A stretch of 36,253 bases of DNA from a virus. Its lineage: Duplodnaviria > Heunggongvirae > Uroviricota > Caudoviricetes. The translations under genes were made by a program, and so were the position numbers. The stretch lies in the IMG/VR virus record IMGVR_UViG_2706794674_000008; one strand, given 5' to 3'. Below, in pieces: positions 2,983-36,253 of the stretch; the first letter of the stretch is position 1, and every line of letters begins with the position of its first letter. Under the pieces are notes generated by a model that made no database searches, was not told the origin of the DNA, and saw nothing but the letters and a program-made list of their open reading frames with translations.

Positions 2983-3411
2983 ATGGGTTTTCGTAGCGCA
3001 TCAATTCTTACGTTGATTATTAGTGGGATTATTATCGGGTGCACTGATGCTGTATCGACAAATTATCATGACCGTACATCATATTACTCCGATAAAGCAA
3101 TAGAGACACAGTATGTGAGTTCATCTGAACGTACTTCTGATGTTAGTGAGGATATCCGTCTGTATGCCCATCAAATCAAGAGCGCCATCGAAAAACAGTT
3201 CGGGGATGCGAGTAAGTATTCAGGAAAAGAGTGTACACTGAGAATGCATATGGCCCCGAATGGCCTTCTACTGGAGGTTAAAAGAGAAAGTGGAGACCTC
3301 GATTTATGTCGTGAAGCGATGAATGCGATAAAGAATGCTGATATACCTGCCCCCCCTTCGCCGGAAGTATATAAAGTATTTCAAAATGGGGTGCTGGATT
3401 TTAAACCCTGA
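2983..3411 (+). CDS. Lipoprotein with C-terminal TolA domain III-like region (142 aa)
   Basis: Signal peptide with lipobox IIGC; C-terminal ...YAHQIKSAIEKQFGDASKYSGKECTLRMHMAPNGLLLEVKRESGDLDLCREAMNAIKNADIPAPPSPEVYKVFQNGVLDFKP closely resembles the C-terminus of E. coli TolA as I recall it (...AGQIKSAIESKFYDASSYAGKTCTLRIKLAPDGMLLDIKPEGGDPALCQAALAAAKLAKIPKPPSQAVYEVFKNAPLDFKP). Confidence 0.8.
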   Translation: MGFRSASILTLIISGIIIGCTDAVSTNYHDRTSYYSDKAIETQYVSSSERTSDVSEDIRLYAHQIKSAIEKQFGDASKYSGKECTLRMHMAPNGLLLEVKRESGDLDLCREAMNAIKNADIPAPPSPEVYKVFQNGVLDFKP

Positions 3412-3561: not shown

Positions 3562-3957
3562 GTGGGATTAAAGAAAATCGTTATGTTGACTTTTTGGGTC
3601 GGTTTTGTTGCGGGATGCACACCTTTACACCCTTCAGATTGCCACAAAACTACTGCTACAGGTAGTTGCAGTTCAGGACGCTGGGATGATCAGGATGAAT
3701 GGGGGGCGCAAGCGCGGGGAATCAGAGCTGCAATTAATGCCAAACTTGATGAGCCGCATAACTGGAAAGGGAAAAAATGCAGGTTGCATATGGAATTCTC
3801 TCAGGATGGCACGGCGTTAAAAATATCTACCAGTAACGGTGATAAAGCCTATTGCGAAGCGATAAAGTCCGCAGCTCATAAAGCCAAATTTCCGGCCTTC
3901 AACAATCCGGAAGTCTACAGAGATTTTCAGAAATCTGGCTTTGACATGCGAGGTTAG
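3562..3957 (+). CDS. Second, more diverged TolA domain III-like lipoprotein (131 aa), GTG start
   Basis: Strong RBS GAGGAG upstream of GTG; lipobox VAGC; C-terminal KKCRLHMEFSQDGTALKISTSNGDKAYCEAIKSAAHKAKFPAFNNPEVYRDFQKSGFD keeps the TolA-III Cys...Cys and EVY..FQ pattern; paralog of 2983..3411. Confidence 0.7.
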   Translation: MGLKKIVMLTFWVGFVAGCTPLHPSDCHKTTATGSCSSGRWDDQDEWGAQARGIRAAINAKLDEPHNWKGKKCRLHMEFSQDGTALKISTSNGDKAYCEAIKSAAHKAKFPAFNNPEVYRDFQKSGFDMRG

Positions 3958-5382: not shown

Positions 5383-5519
5383 AATCTTAACTACAATATG
5401 ATTCATTTTGATGATTGTTTCATAAGGAACAGTGAAGTAAGATCTAAGAGGAGTTAAATTTTATACAGTATAATCATAATATTGCAGCAAGGTGGTTATA
5501 ATTGAAAGAATATTTAGAT

Positions 5520-6977
5520 ATGAATACATCTCATGTAAGAGTTGTTACTCATATGTGTGGGTTCCTGGTTTGGCTCTATAGTCTTTCAATGTTGCCACCA
5601 ATGGTTGTAGCATTGTTTTATAAAGAAAAAAGCCTGTTCGTTTTCTTTATAACTTTCGTTATATTTTTTTGCATTGGTGGCGGAGCGTGGTATACAACTA
5701 AGAAATCTGGCATTCAATTACGTACCCGTGATGGGTTTATTATAATTGTAATGTTTTGGATTTTGTTTTCTGTTATTAGTGCATTCCCTTTATGGATTGA
5801 CTCAGAACTTAATTTAACGTTCATTGATGCTCTGTTTGAAGGGGTTTCTGGAATAACAACAACAGGAGCAACTGTAATTGATGATGTTAGTTCATTACCT
5901 CGGGCATATTTGTACTATCGGTCACAGTTAAATTTTATAGGTGGTTTAGGAGTTATTGTTCTGGCGGTTGCAGTATTGCCATTATTGGGTATTGGTGGTG
6001 CAAAGCTTTATCAGTCAGAAATGCCGGGGCCATTTAAGGATGACAAACTCACTCCCCGCCTGGCCGATACGTCACGGACACTGTGGATAACTTATTCTTT
6101 ATTAGGTATTGCTTGTATTGTCTGTTATAGACTTGCAGGAATGCCTTTGTTTGATGCTATTTGTCACGGGATTTCCACAGTTTCGCTTGGTGGTTTCTCA
6201 ACTCATAGCGAGAGTATCGGATATTTTAATAACTATTTGGTTGAGCTGGTGGCTGGTTCTTTTTCCCTGCTATCGGCTTTCAACTTCACTCTTTGGTATA
6301 TTGTTATTAGCAGAAAAACGATAAAACCTTTAATCAGAGATATTGAACTTCGTTTCTTTCTGTTAATAGCCTTAGGGGTGATCATTGTTACCTCTTTCCA
6401 GGTCTGGCATATAGGTATGTATGACTTGCATGGAAGTTTTATTCATTCGTTTTTTCTTGCCAGCTCCATGCTCACTGATAATGGTTTAGCTACGCAGGAT
6501 TATGCAAACTGGCCCACGCACACGATAGTGTTTTTGCTGTTGTCAAGTTTCTTTGGGGGATGTATAGGTTCAACCTGTGGTGGAATTAAGTCACTTCGAT
6601 TTCTTATACTTTTCAAACAAAGCAAACACGAGATAAATCAGCTTTCTCATCCCAGAGCGTTGTTGAGTGTAAATGTAGGAGGGAAGATAGTTACAGATCG
6701 TGTAATGAGGTCTGTATGGAGTTTCTTTTTTCTTTATACTCTCTTCACGGTGTTTTTTATACTGGTGTTAAATGGTATGGGATATGATTTTCTTACATCA
6801 TTTGCAACAGTGGCTGCATGTATTAATAATATGGGATTAGGTTTTGGGGCTACTGCATCGTCATTCGGAGTGCTTAATGACATTGCAAAATATTTAATGT
6901 GCATAGCTATGATTCTTGGTCGCCTTGAAATTTATCCTGTTATTATATTGTTTTCAGGTTTTTTTTGGCGCTCCTAA
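5520..6977 (+). CDS. trkG: TrkG/TrkH-family potassium uptake membrane protein, 485 aa (moron)
   Basis: Polytopic membrane protein starting MNTSHVRVVTHMCGFLVWLYSL, same length and N-terminus as E. coli K-12 Rac-prophage TrkG from memory; region visibly AT-rich compared with flanking phage genes. Confidence 0.85.
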   Translation: MNTSHVRVVTHMCGFLVWLYSLSMLPPMVVALFYKEKSLFVFFITFVIFFCIGGGAWYTTKKSGIQLRTRDGFIIIVMFWILFSVISAFPLWIDSELNLTFIDALFEGVSGITTTGATVIDDVSSLPRAYLYYRSQLNFIGGLGVIVLAVAVLPLLGIGGAKLYQSEMPGPFKDDKLTPRLADTSRTLWITYSLLGIACIVCYRLAGMPLFDAICHGISTVSLGGFSTHSESIGYFNNYLVELVAGSFSLLSAFNFTLWYIVISRKTIKPLIRDIELRFFLLIALGVIIVTSFQVWHIGMYDLHGSFIHSFFLASSMLTDNGLATQDYANWPTHTIVFLLLSSFFGGCIGSTCGGIKSLRFLILFKQSKHEINQLSHPRALLSVNVGGKIVTDRVMRSVWSFFFLYTLFTVFFILVLNGMGYDFLTSFATVAACINNMGLGFGATASSFGVLNDIAKYLMCIAMILGRLEIYPVIILFSGFFWRS

Positions 6978-7114: not shown

Positions 7115-7903
7115 ATGAGCGAGAAATTAAAGATAGTCTATCGCCCATTACAAGAATTGTCACCGTATGCGCACAACGCCAGGACGCACAGTACTGAGCA
7201 GGTGGCACAACTGGTAGAAAGTATTAAGCAATTCGGCTGGACTAATCCGGTGCTGATTGACGAAAAGGGCGAAATTATTGCGGGTCACGGTCGTGTTATG
7301 GCGGCTGAAATGCTCAAAATGGATTCTGTTCCGGTCATTGTTCTGTCTGGCCTGACGGATGAGCAGAAAAAGGCGTACCGCCTGGCAGATAATCGCCTGC
7401 CGATGAATGCTGGCTGGGATGAAGATCTGTTGCGGATGGAGCTGTCGGACCTAATCAATGCTGATTTTGATGTCTCCCTGACAGGCTTCATCCCGGCAGA
7501 AATTGATGAACTGTTGACGGATGTTTTGCCCGGTACAGGAAATGAGGAGGAGCCGTATACGACGAAAATTGATACGCCTGTTTATGAGCCGTCAGGCGGT
7601 AAACCGGATATCAGTGAACTGTACGACGATACGAAAACTCAGGAGCTGATCAGCCGGATACGTTCGGCGTCCCTTGATCCTGATATTGAGAAATTCCTCC
7701 TGTGTGCAGCAGAACGTCACACGGTGTTTAATTTCAGCAGAATTGCGGACTATTACGCTCATGCCCCCGCTGAAATTCAGTGCCTTTTCGAGGAGTCGGC
7801 GCTGGTGATCATTGATTATCAGCAGGCTATTGAAAATGGATTTGTCCGAATGACGCAGCGCATGGTGGAGATCATGCATGGCGGGGAGGAGGAATATGCG
7901 TGA
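7115..7903 (+). CDS. ParB-like nuclease domain protein (ParB/Srx N-terminal fold), 262 aa
   Basis: N-terminal YRPLQELSPYAHNARTHSTEQVAQLVESIKQFGWTNPVLIDEKGEIIAGHGRVMAA resembles the ParB N-terminal/sulfiredoxin-type domain; located just upstream of the packaging genes. Confidence 0.7.
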   Translation: MSEKLKIVYRPLQELSPYAHNARTHSTEQVAQLVESIKQFGWTNPVLIDEKGEIIAGHGRVMAAEMLKMDSVPVIVLSGLTDEQKKAYRLADNRLPMNAGWDEDLLRMELSDLINADFDVSLTGFIPAEIDELLTDVLPGTGNEEEPYTTKIDTPVYEPSGGKPDISELYDDTKTQELISRIRSASLDPDIEKFLLCAAERHTVFNFSRIADYYAHAPAEIQCLFEESALVIIDYQQAIENGFVRMTQRMVEIMHGGEEEYA

Positions 7904-8828
7904 TGATTTTTGCGCCTTTATTCTGACTCACGGGCGACCGGACAAAGTTCTGACTTACCGGACGTTGCGTCGTGCTGGCTATACCGGGAAAATTTTTATC
8001 GTTGTTGATGATGAAGATAAGACACGGCATCAGTACATGGCTGAATTTGGTGAACAGGTGCTGGTATTTTCCAAAGCCGATATTGCTAGTCGTTTTGACG
8101 AAGCCGATAATTTTAGTGACCGCCGCTCAATTTTTTACGCCCGTAATGCCTGTTTCGACCAGGCAAAACTGGTCGGGTGTAAATACTTCATTCAGCTCGA
8201 TGATGATTATCACGAGTTCCAGTTTCGGGTGGATCGCAACTATGACCAGGCCTATTTCCCGATAAGGAAACTGGATGAGATCCTTTCTGAAATGCTTGCG
8301 TACTACGAATCAATACCTGCTCTTTCCATCGCTATGTCGCAGGGCGGGGATTTTCTTGGTGACAATGGCGGCCATGCTTCGTGGGTGAAACGCAAGGCAA
8401 TGAACAGCTTTATCTGTTCGGTTGATCGACCGTTCTCATTCATGGGGCGCATTAACGAGGATGTGAATACGTACACGAATCTCGGTCGCTGTGGTGAATT
8501 GTTTATGACGATCGGTGCTGTCCAGTTAGGGCAGAAACAGACGCAGAAAAACAGCGGCGGAATGACCGAGCTGTATCTGGATTCCGGAACCTACGTTAAA
8601 AGTTTTTACTCCGTCATGTATGCGCCGTCGTGCGTAAAAATCTCACTTATGGGTGCCAGTCATAAACGCATTCACCATCAGGTCACCTGGAACAACGCTG
8701 CAGTAAAAATCCTTCACGAAAAATACAGGAAGAAGACACCCTGCATATCAATGGGGGTGACAAATGATTCCGTATTCGAAAGTCGAGTCTCTGGCAGCGT
8801 GCCGGATGACTGCACAACAAATCGCTGA
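7896..8828 (+). CDS. Hypothetical protein with glycosyltransferase-A-like sequence motifs (possible nucleotide-sugar transferase)
   Basis: Strong RBS GGGGAGGAGGAA before ATG 7896; motifs FILTHGRPDK, IFIVVDDEDK and DxD-like IQLDDDYHEF recall the GT-A N-terminal Rossmann core; function not established. Confidence 0.5.
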   Translation: MRDDFCAFILTHGRPDKVLTYRTLRRAGYTGKIFIVVDDEDKTRHQYMAEFGEQVLVFSKADIASRFDEADNFSDRRSIFYARNACFDQAKLVGCKYFIQLDDDYHEFQFRVDRNYDQAYFPIRKLDEILSEMLAYYESIPALSIAMSQGGDFLGDNGGHASWVKRKAMNSFICSVDRPFSFMGRINEDVNTYTNLGRCGELFMTIGAVQLGQKQTQKNSGGMTELYLDSGTYVKSFYSVMYAPSCVKISLMGASHKRIHHQVTWNNAAVKILHEKYRKKTPCISMGVTNDSVFESRVSGSVPDDCTTNR

Positions 8829-17389: not shown

Positions 17390-17778
17390 AGTTTACTGAA
17401 ATCAGAAATACGGTTATTTCCAGAATGACGGCACAGACGATTATTGATGGAAAAGACGTATTGTATCCGAACGGGCCAACGTTCGATCCTTCCGGTAAGT
17501 TAATCTGGGCGCGGTTAAGTAATATTCCCGGGCAGGCTGGAGTTAATGAAATTGGCGCGGGGCCGGTTGTTTATCGCACGGGGATAATCATTATTCAGTT
17601 ATTTGTCCCCGCAGGTTCTGGTTCAAAACTCATTACTGAGACAGCCGATAAATTGCGGGAACTGTTTGAGTTTCAGGATGACGATCGTCTCAGTTACCAG
17701 GCTGTTTCCTCAATAGCCGTTGGCGAAAAGAATGGCTGGTTCCAGCTTAATCTTCAAATTCCATATCGCGCGCTCTAG
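17386..17778 (+). CDS. Tail terminator-like protein (gpU-like), 130 aa
   Basis: ATGA overlap with upstream gene; immediately upstream of major tail protein. Confidence 0.5.
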   Translation: MKFTEIRNTVISRMTAQTIIDGKDVLYPNGPTFDPSGKLIWARLSNIPGQAGVNEIGAGPVVYRTGIIIIQLFVPAGSGSKLITETADKLRELFEFQDDDRLSYQAVSSIAVGEKNGWFQLNLQIPYRAL

Positions 17779-24761: not shown

Positions 24762-25306
24762 AAACGGGGGCCGAAGCCATCCGGGCACTGGCCACACAGC
24801 TCCCGGCATTTCGTCAGAAACTGAGCGACGGCTGGTATCAGGTGCGCATTGCCGGGCGTGATGCAGGCGAAAATGAATTATCTGCCCGTCTTAATGAACC
24901 GCTGGCAAATGGTGCCGTGATCCACATCGTTCCGCGTCTGGCGGGTGCCAAAAGTGGCGGTGTGTTTCAGGCGGTGCTGGGTGCGGCGCTGATTGCGGTG
25001 GCATGGTGGAACCCTGTGGGCTGGCTGGGGGCCGCGGCTGTATCGGGTATGTATGCAGCAGGGGCCAGTATGATCCTGGGTGGTGTGGCGCAGATGCTGG
25101 CACCGAAAGCCAGGACGCCCACGGCAGCCAGTACAGATAACGGCAAACAGAACACGTATTTCTCGTCACTGGATAACATGGTTGCCCAGGGTAATGTTCT
25201 GCCTGTTCTGTACGGGGAAATGCGCGTGGGGTCACGTGTGGTTTCTCAGGAGATCAGCACGGCAGACGAAGGGGATGGTGGTCAGGTTGTGGTGATTGGT
25301 CGCTGA
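24659..25306 (+). CDS. I: Tail tip assembly protein I (lambda gpI-like)
   Basis: MAATHTLPLASPGMARICLYGDL... and C-terminal ...GEMRVGSRVVSQEISTADEGDGGQVVVIGR match lambda I as I recall it. Confidence 0.8.
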   Translation: MAATHTLPLASPGMARICLYGDLQRFGRRIDLRVKTGAEAIRALATQLPAFRQKLSDGWYQVRIAGRDAGENELSARLNEPLANGAVIHIVPRLAGAKSGGVFQAVLGAALIAVAWWNPVGWLGAAAVSGMYAAGASMILGGVAQMLAPKARTPTAASTDNGKQNTYFSSLDNMVAQGNVLPVLYGEMRVGSRVVSQEISTADEGDGGQVVVIGR

Positions 25307-25359: not shown

Positions 25360-28888
<3,529 letters not shown>

Positions 28889-28906
28889 ATTTTATAACCC
28901 AGAACG

Positions 28907-28932
28907 GGCGTCAGAAATGACGCCTTTTTTAT
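28907..28932 (+). terminator. Intrinsic terminator after J
   Basis: ggcgtca-gaaa-tgacgcc followed by ttttttatt. Confidence 0.55.
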
Positions 28933-28954
28933 TGCAGAAAAGCGAGAGGTAATT

Positions 28955-29554
28955 ATGCGTAAACTTTATGCCGCCATTTTGTCCGCAGCCATTTGTCTGG
29001 CCGTATCCGGTGCGCCTGCATGGGCGTCTGAACATCAGTCCACGCTGAGCGCGGGGTATCTTCATGCCCGGACGAACGTTCCCGGCAGTGATGATCTGAA
29101 CGGGATTAACGTGAAATACCGTTATGAGTTTACGGACACACTGGGGATGGTGACGTCGTTCAGCTATGCAGGAGACAAGAATCGCCAGCTGACCCATTAC
29201 AGCGATACCCGCTGGCATGAAGATTCCGTGCGTAACCGCTGGTTCAGCGTGATGGCGGGGCCGTCTGTACGCGTGAATGAATGGTTCAGCGCGTATGCGA
29301 TGGCGGGTGTGGCTTACAGCCGTGTGTCGACTTTCTCCGGGGATTATCTCCGCGTAACTGACAACAAGGGGAAAACGCACGACGTGCTGACCGGAAGTGA
29401 TGACGGTCGCCACAGCAACACGTCTCTGGCGTGGGGAGCTGGCGTGCAGTTTAACCCGACCGAATCCGTGGCCATTGATATTGCTTATGAAGGCTCCGGC
29501 AGTGGCGACTGGCGCACTGACGGTTTCATCGTGGGTGTCGGTTATAAATTCTGA
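28955..29554 (+). CDS. lom: Lom-family outer membrane protein (Ail/Lom beta-barrel), 199 aa
   Basis: Signal peptide, alternating-residue beta strands, C-terminal ...GVGYKF; position between J and stf as in lambda. Confidence 0.85.
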   Translation: MRKLYAAILSAAICLAVSGAPAWASEHQSTLSAGYLHARTNVPGSDDLNGINVKYRYEFTDTLGMVTSFSYAGDKNRQLTHYSDTRWHEDSVRNRWFSVMAGPSVRVNEWFSAYAMAGVAYSRVSTFSGDYLRVTDNKGKTHDVLTGSDDGRHSNTSLAWGAGVQFNPTESVAIDIAYEGSGSGDWRTDGFIVGVGYKF

Positions 29555-29580
29555 TTAGCCAGGTAACACAGTGTTATGAC

Positions 29581-29608
29581 AGCCCGCCGGTTCAGGCGGG
29601 CTTTTTTG
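29581..29608 (+). terminator. Intrinsic terminator after lom
   Basis: agcccgcc-ggttca-ggcgggct followed by tttttt. Confidence 0.55.
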
Positions 29609-29618
29609 TGGGGTGAAT

Positions 29619-32600
29619 ATGGCAGTAAAGATTTCAGGTGTACTGAAAGACGGCACAGGAAAACCGGTACAGAACTGCACAATCCAGCTGAAAGCAAAAC
29701 GTAACAGCACCACGGTGGTGGTGAACACGCTGGCCTCAGAAAATCCGGATGAAGCCGGGCGTTACAGCATGGACGTTGAGTACGGTCAGTACAGCGTTAT
29801 TCTGTTGGTGGAAGGATTCCCGCCGTCACATGCCGGGACCATCACCGTGTATGAAGATTCCCGACCCGGTACGCTGAATGATTTTCTCGGTGCCATGACG
29901 GAGGATGATGCCCGTCCGGAGGCACTGCGACGTTTTGAACTGATGGTGGAAGAGGTGGCGCGTAACGCGTCCGCAGTGGCACAGAACACGGCAGCCGCGA
30001 AGAAGTCAGCCAGCGATGCCAGCACATCAGCCCGTGAGGCGGCAACCCATGCGACTGATGCTGCAGGCTCAGCACGCGCAGCCAGCACGTCAGCCGGACA
30101 GGCCGCGTCGTCGGCTCAGTCAGCGTCATCCAGCGCAGGAACGGCATCAGCAAAGGCCACTGAAGCATCAAAAAGTGCTGCCGCTGCAGAGTCCTCAAAA
30201 AGCGCGGCGGCCACCAGTGCCGGTGCCGCGAAAACGTCTGAAACGAATGCGGCAGCGTCACAACAATCAGCAGCCACTTCTGCATCCACCGCGACCACGA
30301 AAGCGTCAGAAGCTGCCACCTCAGCCCGGGATGCGTTGGCTTCAAAAGAGGCGGCAAAATCATCAGAAACGAGCGCAGCCTCGAGCGCCAGTAGTGCAGC
30401 TTCCTCGGCTACGGCGGCAGGCAATTCCGCGAAGGCGGCAAAAACGTCCGAGACGAACGCCAAGGCTTCTGAAACAGCAGCGGAACAGAGTGCCTCCGCA
30501 GCAGCAGGCTCAAAAACAGCGGCTGCGTCGTCCGCCAGTGCCGCGTCAACAAGTGCCGGGCAGGCCTCAGCCAGTGCTAGCGCCGCCGGAAAATCGGCAG
30601 AAAGCGCCGCATCGTCCGCTTCAACAGCCACAACGAAGGCTGGCGAAGCCACTGAACAGGCCAGTGCAGCAGCGAGGTCTGCTTCCGCAGCGAAGACATC
30701 CGAGACGAACGCGAAAGCGTCGGAAACCAGCGCAGAATCCTCAAAAACGGCTGCCGCATCGTCCGCCAGTTCGGCGGCGTCATCGGCCTCATCGGCGTCT
30801 GCTTCAAAAGATGAGGCGACCAGACAGGCGTCCGCAGCGAAGGGCAGCGCCACGACAGCATCCACGAAGGCGACAGAGGCAGCTGGTAGTGCGACGGCAG
30901 CAGCTCAGAGCAAAAGTACGGCGGAATCCGCGGCAACGCGCGCTGAGACAGCGGCAAAACGGGCAGAGGATATTGCATCCGCCGTGGCGCTTGAGGATGC
31001 GAGCACGACGAAAAAGGGGATAGTCCAGCTAAGCAGCGCGACCAACAGCACATCTGAAACGCTTGCCGCGACACCAAAGGCAGTAAAATCAGCCTATGAC
31101 AATGCAGAGAAACGTCTGCAGAAAGACCAGAATGGCGCTGATATACCCGATAAGGGACGCTTCCTGAACAACATTAACGCGGTCAGTAAAACAGACTTTG
31201 CTGATAAGCGTGGTATGCGTTATGTGCGGGTTAACGCTCCTGCAGGTGCAATATCTGGAAAATATTACCCTGTTGTTGTTATGCGTTCTGCTGGCTCAGT
31301 AAGCGAACTGGCATCAAGGGTCATTATCACCACGGCAACGCGAACCGCAGGCGATCCGATGAATAACTGCGAGTTTAACGGATTTGTTATGCCTGGTGGC
31401 TGGACTGACAGGGGGCGTTATGCTTATGGCATGTTCTGGCAATATCAAAACAATGAACGAGCCATCCACTCAATAATGATGAGTAATAAGGGCGATGATT
31501 TGCGCTCTGTGTTCTATGTTGATGGCGCTGCTTTCCCTGTTTTTGCGTTTCTCGAAGATGGCCTGTCAATATCCGCACCTGGTGCTGATCTCGTTGTTAA
31601 TGATACGACCTATAAGTTTGGGGCAACAAATCCGGCGACTGAATGTATCGCGGCGGACGTTATCCTTGATTTTAAGAGTGGGCGTGGTTTTTATGAGTCC
31701 CATTCGTTAATCGTTAACGATAACTTGTCGTGCAAAAAACTTTTTGCCACAGACGAAATTGTAGCGCGTGGTGGTAATCAGATTCGAATGATAGGTGGGG
31801 AGTATGGGGCATTATGGCGTAATGATGGCGCTAAAACTTACCTGCTGCTTACCAATCAAGGTGATGTTTATGGTGGATGGAATACATTAAGACCGTTTGC
31901 TATTGATAACGCAACCGGCGAACTGGTTATTGGAACCAAACTGTCTGCAAGTCTGAACGGTAACGCATTGACAGCAACAAAGCTGCAAACGCCAAGACTG
32001 GTTTCTGGGGTTGAGTTTGATGGTTCAAAAGATATTACTTTAACCGCCGCGCATGTGGCTGCTTTTGCCAGAAGGGCAACGGATACATATGCCGATGCGG
32101 ATGGTGGCGTTCCCTGGAATGCCGAATCAGGCGCTTACAATGTCACCCGCTCTGGCGACAGCTATATTCTGGTTAACTTCTATACCGGAGTCGGAAGTTG
32201 CCGGACCCTGCAGATGAAGGCGCATTACAGAAATGGAGGTCTGTTCTACCGTTCCTCAAGAGATGGCTATGGTTTTGAGGAAGGCTGGGCAGAAGTTTAT
32301 ACCTCGAAAAATCTTCCACCAGAAAGCTACCCAGTCGGCGCACCAATCCCGTGGCCATCAGATACCGTTCCGTCTGGTTATGCCCTGATGCAGGGGCAGA
32401 CTTTTGACAAATCTGCTTACCCGAAACTTGCAACCGCTTATCCGTCAGGCGTGATCCCTGATATGCGTGGCTGGACGATTAAGGGCAAACCTGCCAGTGG
32501 TCGGGCCGTATTGTCTCAGGAACAGGACGGCATTAAATCGCATACCCACAGCGCCAGCGCATCCAGTACGGATTTGGGGACGAAAACCACATCGTCGTTT

Positions 32601-33017
32601 GATTACGGCACTAAATCCACGAATAACACTGGTGCGCATACCCATAGTTTAAGTGGCAGCACGAATGCAGCTGGTAATCACAGCCATAGAGATGGCCGTC
32701 GATTTAACCCCAGTGTTTTTAAAGATACTTATCAATATGGTTATACAAGCTCAGGTCAAAATACCTGGGGTGTACAAGGCTCAGTAGGTATGTCTACGGG
32801 GTGGTTAGCTAATACCAGTACAGATGGTAATCATAGCCACTCACTGTCCGGCACAGCAGCATCTGCAGGTGCACACGCGCATACTGTCGGTATTGGTGCT
32901 CATACGCACTCCGTTGCGATTGGTTCACATGGACACACCATCACCGTTAACGCTGCTGGTAACGCGGAAAACACCGTCAAAAACATCGCATTTAACTATA
33001 TTGTGAGGCTTGCATAA
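29619..33017 (+). CDS. stf: Side tail fibre protein (Stf/StfR-like), about 1132 aa
   Basis: [26 protein letters not shown]... N-terminus as in lambda Stf; long Ala/Ser/Thr-rich repeat region; C-terminal His-x-His repeats ([53 protein letters not shown]). Confidence 0.9.
29960..31010 (+). repeat. Low-complexity Ala/Ser/Thr-rich coding repeats inside stf, with three near-identical AAKTSETNA(A/K)AS units
   Basis: Repeated KTSETNA-containing blocks in translation; source of multiple spurious ORFs in other frames/strand. Confidence 0.7.
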
Positions 33018-33592
33018 TGGCATTCAGAATGAGTGAACAACCACGGACCATAAAAATTTATAATCTGCTGGCCGGAACTAATGAATTTATTGGTGAAGGT
33101 GACGCATACATTCCGCCTCATACAGGTCTGCCAGCAAACAGTACCGATATTGCACCGCCAGATATTCCGGCTGGCTTCGTGGCTGTTTTCAACAGTGATG
33201 ATGCATCGTGGCATCTTGTTGAAGACCATCGGGGTAAAACAGTTTATGACGTGGCATCAGGGGACGCGTTATTTATTTCTGAACTCGGTCCGTTACCGGA
33301 AAATGTTACCTGGTTATCGCCGGAAGGGGAATATCAGAAGTGGAACGGCACAGCCTGGGTGAAAGATGCAGAAGCAGAAAAACTATTCCGGATCCGGGAG
33401 GCGGAAGAAACAAAAAACAGCCTGATGCAGGTAGCCAGTGAGCATATTGCGCCGCTTCAGGATGCGGTAGATCTTGAGATCGCAACGGAGGAAGAGAAAT
33501 CGTTACTGGCCGCATGGAAGACATATCGGGTGTTGTTGAATCGTGTTGATACATCACTATCTCCAGATATCGAGTGGCCAAGTCAACCATAA
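33017..33592 (+). CDS. tfa: Tail fibre assembly chaperone (Tfa-like), 191 aa
   Basis: TAATG overlap with stf stop; [48 protein letters not shown]... typical of lambda Tfa. Confidence 0.85.
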
Positions 33593-33598
33593 ATCAAT

Positions 33599-33619
33599 AT
33601 CCCCTGCAATGCAGGGGAT
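33599..33619. terminator. Hairpin between convergent tfa and sopB (possible bidirectional terminator)
   Basis: atcccctgc-aat-gcaggggat, perfect 9-bp stem. Confidence 0.45.
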
Positions 33620-33624
33620 AATTC

Positions 33625-34590
33625 TTAATTATCAGTAGATTGTTCCTCTAGTAACAACTCAATTTTGCTTAGTATTTCTTTAGATATTTTGCGGCTATCA
33701 ATTTTTATAGTTACAAAATTCCCTTTATATCTAGCCGTGATCCCTTCCCCATATTTTTTCTCGTCTTTTGTTTTTTCCTCGTCGCCAACCAGAACAGAGT
33801 CAGATAATATTTGTATAATCCGTGAAGCTTCTAAATCCTCGCCGTTTTTTTTTATTGTCAGAAGATGATGAGCAGCATTGCTCATGGCAGCCATGTTTTT
33901 TTTGTAAATCTTAAACAAAGAATCTCCAGCACGAGCTGACAGTTCTCCTGGATGATTGAAGATAGCTAATATATCTTTTGGTAGACCAGCTGTATTAATA
34001 CAGCGAGTGATAATATTTCTATCTATATTTTCAGCCTCGGCCAATGCTTTAACGTTACCATCAAAGTCATTTAGCTTGCGTAAGTATCTCTTTCCTCTTT
34101 CGTATGCACTAATAGGCCTATAATCGTTACCAATTTGGGATAACCAATGCATCTGTTCATCGTCGAGATCACCAATTAAGACGCGATAGTCACATCCTGT
34201 TAATATCGCTGCTTTTCTTCTACGTGAGCCGTCAGCGACTTCAACGATTCCAGATACTTTTCTGGCGAAAGCTGGATTTTGTTGTCCAGACGTTAGAAAA
34301 GATGGGATTAAATCGGCTAGAGAGGATTCATTTAATAAATCTTGATCGCGTTCATTACCTAGCCATACCATTGTTGCCATTTCAACTTTATCTGCGGGAA
34401 TTGTCTCTAACTTAAAGTTAACATTACGTCCGCATACTGGCAAAGTTATGCTGTTACCGGTTAATGAACTCAGTTGACGTTTTAAATCACCAACCATAGG
34501 TGATACGGGCTGATGTTCAGGGGCATGATGATTATTACTCATAATGCGATTAATATCTGGAGCATTTTTTAGAAGAGAGCGCTGTTTCAT
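33625..34590 (-). CDS. sopB: Plasmid partition protein SopB (ParB-type CBP), 321 aa
   Basis: ...ITLPVCGRNVNF...WLGNERDQDLL...LIPSFLTSGQQNPAFARKVSGIVEVADGSRRRKAAILT...NDYRPISAYERG... closely parallels F-plasmid SopB from memory. Confidence 0.85.
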   Translation of the reverse strand: MKQRSLLKNAPDINRIMSNNHHAPEHQPVSPMVGDLKRQLSSLTGNSITLPVCGRNVNFKLETIPADKVEMATMVWLGNERDQDLLNESSLADLIPSFLTSGQQNPAFARKVSGIVEVADGSRRRKAAILTGCDYRVLIGDLDDEQMHWLSQIGNDYRPISAYERGKRYLRKLNDFDGNVKALAEAENIDRNIITRCINTAGLPKDILAIFNHPGELSARAGDSLFKIYKKNMAAMSNAAHHLLTIKKNGEDLEASRIIQILSDSVLVGDEEKTKDEKKYGEGITARYKGNFVTIKIDSRKISKEILSKIELLLEEQSTDN

Positions 34591-35756
34591 TATTCGTTCT
34601 CCCAGCGAGGTTTTATTAGATCATCAAAAATTTCTCTGCAAACAGGGTCCCATATAGAAACAGCATTTCTCCATGCATTCAATGTTGAACGTTGGTTTGC
34701 TGCTTGTTCAAATACTGTTCTCATTTTTATCTGGCCTTTACCTACTTCATCGGTAACGCGTACAACCTGACGTAATACCATTGATCCCCATGTATTTCTT
34801 ATTTGTTCTTCCATCCATCGTGATTGATTCCCTGTAGTGAGACTATATTTAGTCAGAAGTAAGCGAACGGTTGGCTCAAATCCACCTAGGTCAACGCTTT
34901 CCAATAGATCGAGAAGCATTGTGAAAAACTGTAGAACAGAAGCGTAATCAAATAATTCTGCAGGTGTAGCAACAACAATAACGTCAGCGGCACAAACAAC
35001 GTTAATGGTTCCTGTACCGAGGTTCGGAGCACTATCTATAACGATAACATCGTAGTTATCCCAAACTGATTCAATAGCTGCGCGCAGCATAAGGTGTGGA
35101 GGATGAGGCAATTTACCCTGAGCATGATATTGCATGAGATCTGTTTCTATACGATGTAAAGCTAGGCAGCTAGGGATAATGTCTAGCCCAGGCCAACATG
35201 TTGGCTTTATAGCATATTCAGCGTTATCGCGTTCTCCTAAGTAAAATGGCAGTAAAGTATCCTCGGCATGGATATGTAAATCAGGAACATAACCGTGATA
35301 CATAGAGGCTGTACCTTGAGGATCGTTACCTTCAACCAAAAGAACACGATGACCTTGTAATGCTAACCATTGAGCTTGATGTACCGCAGACGATGTTTTA
35401 TAAACGCCGCCTTTGTGTGACATAACGGCAAGAACAACAGGGTTTTTATCTTGTGGTCGTTGGTTTGGGTTGCCAAAAACTGCTCGCATACTGTTGATTT
35501 GATCTATGGTATAACCAGCACGACGTTCAATTCTTCCTCTCATTTCAAAGTCAGGTGCAGGTAAACGCCCGCTCTTCTCAGCATCTCTAATTGCTTGAGG
35601 AGTTACACCAATTAAATCTGCTACTTCAGTAATACCCCATCGGCGGGTGATACGCCGAGCTTCAGGACTATCATCACCGAATTGAGCGATAGCAATTGCT
35701 TGGGTCATTTCTTGACCTCTCGTAACACAATCTTGCAATAGCTTTTTCAAAGACAT
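34590..35756 (-). CDS. sopA: Plasmid partition ATPase SopA (ParA-type, Walker-type), 388 aa
   Basis: Same length as F SopA; deviant Walker A box in SHKGGVYKTSSAV, IDSAPNLG, NDPQGTASMYHG; RBS GGAGA before ATG. Confidence 0.9.
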   Translation of the reverse strand: MSLKKLLQDCVTRGQEMTQAIAIAQFGDDSPEARRITRRWGITEVADLIGVTPQAIRDAEKSGRLPAPDFEMRGRIERRAGYTIDQINSMRAVFGNPNQRPQDKNPVVLAVMSHKGGVYKTSSAVHQAQWLALQGHRVLLVEGNDPQGTASMYHGYVPDLHIHAEDTLLPFYLGERDNAEYAIKPTCWPGLDIIPSCLALHRIETDLMQYHAQGKLPHPPHLMLRAAIESVWDNYDVIVIDSAPNLGTGTINVVCAADVIVVATPAELFDYASVLQFFTMLLDLLESVDLGGFEPTVRLLLTKYSLTTGNQSRWMEEQIRNTWGSMVLRQVVRVTDEVGKGQIKMRTVFEQAANQRSTLNAWRNAVSIWDPVCREIFDDLIKPRWENE

Positions 35757-35764
35757 ACTGTCAT

Positions 35765-35858
35765 CTCCAGCTTGTAACTTTGCTTAATAATTAAATCTTT
35801 GCTTATTTCTAGCAAATTTGCATGAAAAAGGCAAAGCAAAAAGAAAAACGCAAAGGAG
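35765..35858 (-). promoter_or_regulatory. sopA promoter-operator with four CTTTGC/GCAAAG hexamers
   Basis: CTTTGC at 35768-35773 and 35787-35792, GCAAAG at 35831-35836 and 35850-35855, immediately upstream of sopA; F SopA is reported to bind CTTTGC repeats in its operator. Confidence 0.5.
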
Positions 35859-36043
35859 AATTTTTAAGCTAAATCATCTTTTGTTCCCCTCCCGAAATGC
35901 ATAAAACGAACAACAACATAATCATAAGTAATTGATATTTATTATATTTTTTGAAGAAAGGAAATCATGTAAAACTAGGGAAACATGATAAGAATCATCA
36001 ATGAGATACGTTTTCTCTATTAGTTCTCCCAACCTTACCAATA

Positions 36044-36175
36044 CAAGAACACAAATAAAGAACACAAAAACTAAGTAATGATGCAAACATAATAAAGAAC
36101 ACAAATAAAGAATTAAAGCTAAATGTTAAATAAAGCAGTACACAAAATGAGAATATTACACTAAATAAGAACACT
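36044..36175. repeat. AT-rich direct repeats of AAGAACA(C) motif (two identical 16-mers aagaacacaaataaag) leading into the terminal palindrome
   Basis: 16-mer at 36045-36060 and 36095-36110; further AAGAACA copies at 36167 and inside palindrome arm (36179). Confidence 0.45.
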
Positions 36176-36253
36176 AATCAAGAACATAACGAAACATAAT
36201 TCCCCATTATACGCGCGTATAATGGGGAATTATGTTTCGTTATGTTCTTGATT
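36176..36253. repeat. Perfect 78-bp palindrome (2 x 39 bp) with alternating-CG centre; candidate protelomerase target site (telRL/tos-like)
   Basis: aatcaagaacataacgaaacataattccccattatacgc|gcgtataatggggaattatgtttcgttatgttcttgatt; the central CCATTATACGCGCGTATAATGG matches the phage N15 telO core as I recall it; palindrome runs to the last base of the window. Confidence 0.7.

Follow-up and report, generated by a model that had tools for sequence, protein, structure and literature searches.

What does a perfect palindrome represent when it ends exactly at the last base of an assembled phage sequence: a protelomerase target, the end of a linear molecule or an accident of assembly? Telomere phages of the N15 type are maintained as linear plasmid prophages whose hairpin ends are made by TelN. 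The window, i.e. the whole stretch of 36,253 nucleotides analysed here, closes with such a palindrome. A preliminary description read it as the mark of a telomere phage, took the 78 bp for the protelomerase target and expected the protelomerase gene just past the window end. By exact-protein look-up, the window was identified as a complete database scaffold (CWTO01000036.1, 36253 bp, assembly GCA_001250535.1), and the palindrome reaches its last base. Since the scaffold stops 39 nt past the dyad, the length of 78 bp is set by the contig end and is not a property of the site.

The palindrome itself is real. Its left arm (36176-36214) and right arm (36215-36253), both given on the plus strand, form a perfect inverted repeat of 39 + 39 nt, 100% complementary and with a spacer of 0 nt. 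As single-stranded DNA, the 78 nt have a folding energy of -39.1 kcal/mol compared with -5.7 +/- 1.9 in 200 shuffles (z = -17.6), and a perfect inverted repeat with 39-nt arms in 36 kb cannot arise by chance. The centre TACGCGCGTA occupies positions 36210-36219 and is flanked by CCCCATTA and TAATGGGG. The annotated telRL sites of N15 (AF064539 24775-24830, 'cut at 24802/3') and phiKO2 (AY374448 29121-29170) were aligned with the window on the dyad. This ungapped comparison delimits a 22-bp telO core, CCATTATACGCGCGTATAATGG, at 36204-36225. In the N15 telRL centre, 22 of 22 positions are identical and the dyad coincides to the base with the annotated cut 24802/3, so that the core match proposed in the preliminary description is confirmed. 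Judged by this identity, the 22-bp core is presumed to be the cleaving-joining site of TelN.

Inwards from the palindrome lie two partition genes, both on the minus strand. The gene sopA (34590-35756) encodes a ParA-type partition ATPase 93% identical to N15 gp28 (NCBIfam NF010259, 734 bits against a cut-off of 725). Its neighbour sopB (33625-34590) encodes a ParB-type partition protein 73% identical to N15 gp27 (NF010252, 408 bits against a cut-off of 274), and both proteins score above the NCBIfam equivalog cut-offs. The sopA start codon is 458 bp from the dyad compared with 487 bp in N15; the palindrome thus sits at the sopBA end, as in the N15 map. The F/N15-type neighbourhood noticed earlier thus holds. 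Further inwards, on the plus strand, 25613-33592 carries the genes for the tail-tip protein J (its 5′ end is lost in a gap), Lom, the side tail fibre Stf and the tail fibre assembly protein Tfa, colinear with two whole-plasmid contigs (L027, L024). The exact Stf protein is found on many contigs of 46-47 kb with sopBA and telN. Upstream of sopA, the segment 35780-35860 is rich in CTTTGC / GCAAAG-type inverted motifs (ttgctttgcttatttctagcaaatttgcatgaaaaaggcaaagcaaaaag) and, from its sequence, looks like a sop promoter-operator. A search of the window for the F-plasmid sopC repeat (TGGGACCACGGTCCCA) with up to 3 mismatches gave no match.

How much of the window belongs to the element that carries the palindrome? 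Two runs of N, at 1396-1663 (268 nt) and 25360-25612 (253 nt), make the window a scaffold of three contigs. The second run, a scaffold gap, delimits the plasmid-derived contig on the left. The sequence of positions 1-25359 is not N15-like and matches the late region of Rac-type lambdoid prophages. Their content comprises a T4-type terminase, a DUF4055 portal, a P22-like coat, a tape measure of 1077 aa, DUF1367, lysis genes, trkG (5502-6977), two ORFs with a TolA C-terminal domain (2983-3411 and 3562-3957) and a ParB_N gene with a TAGT glycosyltransferase gene. Among PLSDB plasmids, coverage of the first 20 kb of the window never exceeds 14%. The last two genes form a pair at 7115-8828, shortly upstream of the genes for the terminase: the first encodes a ParB_N-domain protein of 262 aa and the second a TET-associated glycosyltransferase (TAGT) of 316 aa. 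From its domain content, this pair is possibly a DNA-modification module.

The exact gpI of the left contig recurs elsewhere. Sibling assemblies from the same project, like two complete chromosomes, have it ahead of J-lom-stf-tfa, beyond which come chromosomal genes, either ABC-transporter genes or a Mn-catalase gene, with counterparts annotated sitDCB in a related E. coli chromosome. For this reason, it is almost certain that 1-25359 and 25613-36253 were joined in error during scaffolding, within the I/J repeat, which is common to the chromosomal prophage and the plasmid. Similarity to N15-like plasmids rises from 89% directly left of the gap at 25360-25612 to about 95% over the next 500 nt to its right and to 100% thereafter. 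All 23 mismatches to the two plasmid contigs (L024, L027) fall within 25843-26344, the 5′ part of J by the gap, and identity is 100% from 26345 onwards. This mismatch cluster may reflect either a consensus in which the chromosomal and plasmid copies of J are collapsed or mixed, or a local recombination patch. Two further readings of this region were tried and rejected. J had appeared to be a unique mosaic gene, as an exact look-up matched the window contig alone; the gene is truncated by the run of 253 N. Multiple crossovers had been suggested by an alternating best match between one plasmid and one chromosome; compared with L024 and L027, the third piece is wholly plasmid-like.

Were the join genuine, the window would be a recombinant telomere phage-plasmid with an N15-type sopBA-telR end and tail-fibre genes, in which the lambda-like head/tail module is replaced by a Rac-type one (T4-like terminase, DUF4055 portal, P22-like coat, 1077-aa tape measure, trkG). 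Such a combination is absent from the plasmid, phage and complete E. coli genome records searched, and we consider this recombinant improbable. Two sibling assemblies (L034, L036) contain other odd joins between this Rac-type prophage and lambda-like or N15-like modules.

On the plasmid-derived contig, the right arm of the palindrome repeats the sop-side flank as its reverse complement; the telN-side flank ...GTGCTGATTTTCAGAAC is absent. Past +21, the right arm of the window reads TTCGTTATGTTCTTGATT, the complement of the left flank. All relatives with telN downstream carry GCTGATTTTCAGAAC past +21, among them four (L015, L020, L021, L002) which are 99-100% identical to the window on the sop side. 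Genuine telRL right arms (N15, phiKO2, the E. albertii plasmid pEA8_3 and two 46-kb contigs) continue with GTGCTGAT(T/A)..., which is the telN-side flank, and the intact telRL of the relatives diverges into GTGCTGATTTTCAGAAC after +12 to +21.

The symmetry of these sites is accordingly limited. The telRL is perfect to ±11 in N15, ±14 in phiKO2, ±21 in pEA8_3 and ±12 in the two 46-kb contigs, whose sop side is 99% identical to that of the window. The base pair at ±13 varies (L020 16597, L021 14869, L002 8715): the telL and telR arms of one element may differ, with C on the left and A on the right in L020 and L021, and different elements have G, A or T. As a result, native telRL sites are symmetric to between ±12 and ±21. 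In contrast to the native N15 site, the window is perfect to ±39 because its sequence is a fold-back and not a telRL. By comparison with the relatives, perfect symmetry beyond about ±21 and the 39-nt arm would be a product of assembly or, equivalently, a telRR replication junction. In the N15 nomenclature, the window sequence corresponds to a telRR junction since its right arm mirrors the sop-side arm. The claim that the 78 bp are the protelomerase target telRL thus has to be abandoned, and we hold it highly probable that they represent the telR hairpin end, read around its tip.

The position of the dyad recurs in other records. Short-read contigs with this sequence, assembled independently, end at +39 (the window), +34, +9, -18, -22, -22 and -28 from the dyad. 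In long-read records and in 'circular' records of 50-91 kb, CP088810.1 among them, the sequence continues past the dyad as its own mirror image for 6-14 kb. Unit-length records of 45-49 kb connect the sop-side arm to an unlike arm on the telN side, with symmetry reaching no further than ±12-21. A break, a mirror or a telN-side join at one nucleotide position is what a covalently closed hairpin end would produce, and is indirect evidence for it. Furthermore, the deposited record of phage PhiR46_1 is linear, and telL and telR are annotated at its ends.

Plasmid CP088810.1 (PLSDB, 81 kb, labelled circular) is one of these records. It is 100% identical to the window over 33500-36253. Past the dyad it continues as a mirror of more than 6 kb, a second and inverted sopA-sopB-tfa-stf and not telN, and many other contigs do likewise. 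Its mirror centres lie at 17441 and 64408, i.e. 46,967 bp apart; a gene for a telomere resolvase of 635 aa adjoins the first and sopAB the second. The two ends have only the inner 42 bp in common. In the window this 42-bp segment spans 36194-36235, and its inverted copy at the telL end is a 100% match (CP088810.1 17421-17462) which sits between two mirrored telomere-resolvase genes. Several short-read contigs end at the outer edge of this segment, at -22.

Public 'complete' records of the N15-like family contain fold-back duplications across telL or telR. In YDC107_1 (L006, CP025712.1, 33222-40263), the duplication includes a second, inverted copy of the protelomerase gene, split into three ORFs. 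Such fold-back records (YDC107_1, and CP088810.1 with 81 kb for an element of about 47 kb) are mis-assembled hairpin-ended DNA labelled as circular or complete.

Taken together, 25613-36214 (J, lom, stf, tfa, sopB, sopA, telR) is in all likelihood the right-hand end of an N15-like phage-plasmid, and the palindrome a read-through of its telR hairpin. On this reading, 36176-36214 would be the terminal 39 bp of the telR arm, with the duplex ending in the hairpin turn 36214|36215, and 36215-36253, an exact reverse complement up to the scaffold end, would be a fold-back copy of the same arm and not the telL, or telN-side, arm. As in N15, replication of which produces telRR and telLL junctions, TelN resolving telRL, telRR and telLL into hairpins (PMC12624138; PMC10612081), the element would pass through several forms. 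After infection, the cos-circularised genome would carry telRL. A TelN dimer would bind the tel palindrome, i.e. telRL after infection and telRR or telLL after replication, and make staggered cuts around the dyad via a phosphotyrosyl intermediate, as is inferred from N15 and TelK. Each strand would then be resealed by TelN onto its own complement, yielding the telL and telR hairpins. The lysogen form would be a linear duplex of about 47 kb, its two strands joined by a hairpin at each end and the plasmid partitioned by SopA and SopB; covalently closed ends are thus predicted for the molecule represented in the window. The genes telN and repA would lie near the other telomere, outside the window scaffold.

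The sequencing of such a molecule may explain the geometry of the palindrome. A denatured hairpin would be one continuous strand, and reads would run from the sop-side flank across the tip into their own reverse complement. A de Bruijn assembler would follow this fold-back until the k-mer is self-complementary and then stop, leaving a perfect palindrome of about k+1 bases. We infer that the stop at +39 is due to the k-mer size of the assembler; 78 bp fits a k of about 77-79. Other assemblies, with their varying overhangs, are compatible with this explanation of the contig stop.

Three other explanations of the palindrome were weighed. The best of them holds that it is a real, double-stranded telRR junction, i.e. 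a head-to-head replication intermediate which was sequenced before its resolution by TelN. N15 replication does make telRR and telLL (PMC12624138), and the sequence of a telRR junction would equal that of the window. However, only a minority of the molecules in a resting lysogen should be in such an intermediate state, and the hairpin alone suffices to give the same reads; the two cannot be separated by sequence. We regard a replication intermediate as a distinctly improbable source.

It is less probable still, indeed very unlikely, that the 78 bp are an intact internal telRL, unusually long and perfect, of a circular or phage-form genome, with the contig breaking there and telN directly downstream. 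In the phage-form map of the relatives, telN does follow about 190 bp past the dyad, and long perfect tel sites exist, e.g. the 42-bp perfect palindrome reported for PY54 (PMC3540006). This reading is contradicted by the sop-side complement past +21, where the telN-bearing relatives have their own sequence, and by the identical record CP088810.1, which runs into the mirrored sopA-sopB-tfa and not into telN. Finally, a pure artefact (a chimeric fold-back read or mis-assembly in a circular or integrated element lacking any telomere) is scarcely credible: the scaffold is unreliable elsewhere, with two N gaps and a probable mis-join, and obvious fold-back mis-assemblies occur in public records of the N15-like family, but the dyad is the mapped TelN site of N15 to the base, dozens of independent assemblies from different technologies break or mirror at the same point, no integrase or attP adjoins the palindrome and the N15-like family encodes TelN. 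In particular, a library chimera falling by fold-back on the dyad is very unlikely because the same fold-back recurs in many assemblies.

The telR hairpin also determines where the protelomerase gene is to be sought. No such gene was found in the window, where the left 25.4 kb match Rac-type prophages and the ten proteins scanned against Pfam have no protelomerase domain. The expectation of telN just past the window end is correct for the phage or telRL-joined map, as in the intact telRL of the relatives telN starts about 190 bp past the dyad. It fails for the linear prophage, whose DNA terminates at the dyad and leaves no sequence past the window end; in CP088810.1 telN is located at the other telomere. 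Linear plasmids with telL and telR hairpins are circularly permuted by about 50% with respect to virion DNA (PMC10612081; PMC3540006). In relatives which are 99-100% identical to the window on the sop side, a protelomerase of 631-639 aa is present, with the Pfam domains TelK_N, TelK_muzzle, ResT-TelK_cat and TelK_stirrup; the TelN of CP088810.1 is 77% identical to that of N15. The telomere-phage reading of the preliminary description is thereby upheld by the exact telO core, the sopBA neighbourhood and near-identical relatives with a TelN-type protelomerase.

The suggestion of a distinct telomere-phage lineage is overstated. The arms do differ from N15 outside the core, but the last 9.9 kb (26345 to the contig end) are 100% identical to AAXQQC010000013.1, a whole-plasmid contig of 46.8 kb, and to another contig. 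The sop-tel region matches 46 PLSDB plasmids from Escherichia, Klebsiella, Enterobacter and Lelliottia, 20 of them at an identity of at least 95%, and the protein-position collection lists the identical SopA protein in 6510 blocks. Among the relatives are the phage PhiR46_1 (PV340565.1, 89% identical) and YDC107_1 (CP025712.1), which is classified in Ravinvirus. The same telR arm is found in public records of N15-like linear plasmids and phages from E. coli and E. albertii, namely pB16EC0268-3 (CP088810.1), pEA8_3 (NZ_CP117561.1), contig AAXQQC010000013.1, PhiR46_1 and YDC107_1. These elements carry telN and repA; they show no substantial difference from the window in its plasmid-derived part, and none has the Rac-type segment. 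N15-like phage-plasmids have been surveyed in Escherichia and Shigella (bioRxiv 10.1101/2025.09.12.675607; PMC12042878). The database matches of the window point to Escherichia/Shigella. Within the literature collection searched, no paper describing PhiR46_1 / ECOR13 was found. Judged by its DNA, the element is a known and common N15-like phage-plasmid which is already in public databases, and the lineage is not new.

Beyond the core, the telomere-flanking sequence contains repeats of the motif AGAACAYWA. Five direct copies lie within 36046-36189 on the plus strand, at -169, -156, -119, -47 and -34 from the dyad. In the whole window the motif has 7 matches compared with 0.98 expected, and 6 of the 7 fall in the last 210 nt. 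Members of the motif family also surround the telRL of N15, PhiR46_1 and pEA8_3, some of them inverted and on the telN side. The natural N15 site comprises 310 bp and contains L1/L2, degenerate copies of the L3/R3 TelN-binding motif (PMC12624138). By analogy, the AGAACAYWA repeats are plausibly the counterparts of these L1/L2-type, tos-like accessory TelN-binding repeats.

The outer L3/R3-type repeat of N15 is a 10-bp motif (TATCAGCACA / TGTGCTGATA) about 15-24 bp from the dyad. At the outer L3 position of the window (36187-36196, -28 to -19), TAACGAAACA replaces the TATCAGCACA of N15 and of the PhiR46_1 telR, with 6 of 10 positions identical to N15. The telL arm of the relatives keeps the canonical outer repeat TGTGCTGAT. 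Likewise, AGCACAYAA is present at -24 in N15, phiKO2, PhiR46_1 and the telL arm, whereas the telR arm of the window has GAAACATAA. Since L3 is degenerate on the telR arm, the native telRL of this lineage is asymmetric beyond ±21. A telRR junction of this lineage is without the canonical motif on both sides, yet it must be resolved; recognition of the telR arm by TelN, with 4 of 10 L3-type positions unlike N15, is assumed here.

The biology of hairpin-ended linear prophages of the N15 type is textbook knowledge and the element is already represented by identical public sequences, so that these findings add nothing new on telomere resolution. Their use lies in reading assemblies. Where a perfect palindrome has a tel core at its centre and ends exactly with the contig, it is the mark of a read-through hairpin and does not give the size of the site; telN is then to be sought at the other end of the replicon and not downstream of the palindrome. 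Hairpin read-through also explains many double-length, mirrored 'circular' records of N15-like plasmids in PLSDB and GenBank. The same logic of hairpin ends marks the window scaffold as chimeric, part chromosomal prophage and part plasmid.

The window and N15 agree in organization. Both maps have the same order, i.e. tail fibre genes, sopB, sopA, a spacer of about 460-490 bp and tel, and both sites are flanked by AGAACAYWA-type repeats. Outside the core, the arm of the window reads ...AAGAACATAACGAAACATAATTCCCC and that of N15 ...CGGAACATATCAGCACACAATTGCCC; the base at ±13 differs, and N15 DNA is too diverged from the window to be detected by megablast. In Klebsiella relatives, the sopAB region shows only about 77% DNA identity to the window. 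The phiKO2 site has the identical 22-bp core in the dyad alignment and also has CCCATTATACGCGCGTATAATGGG in common with the window. The central TACGCGCGTA is common to the window, phiKO2 and PY54, the latter compared by literature statements only (PMC3540006), whereas the outer arms and flanks of both phages are unlike those of the window. The outer L3/R3 repeat, which differs in phiKO2 and PY54, is thus a feature of the N15 minimal site and not of the whole family. With their protelomerases TelK and Tel, phiKO2 and PY54 use the same mechanism and are maintained as linear plasmid prophages with hairpin ends (PMC10612081).
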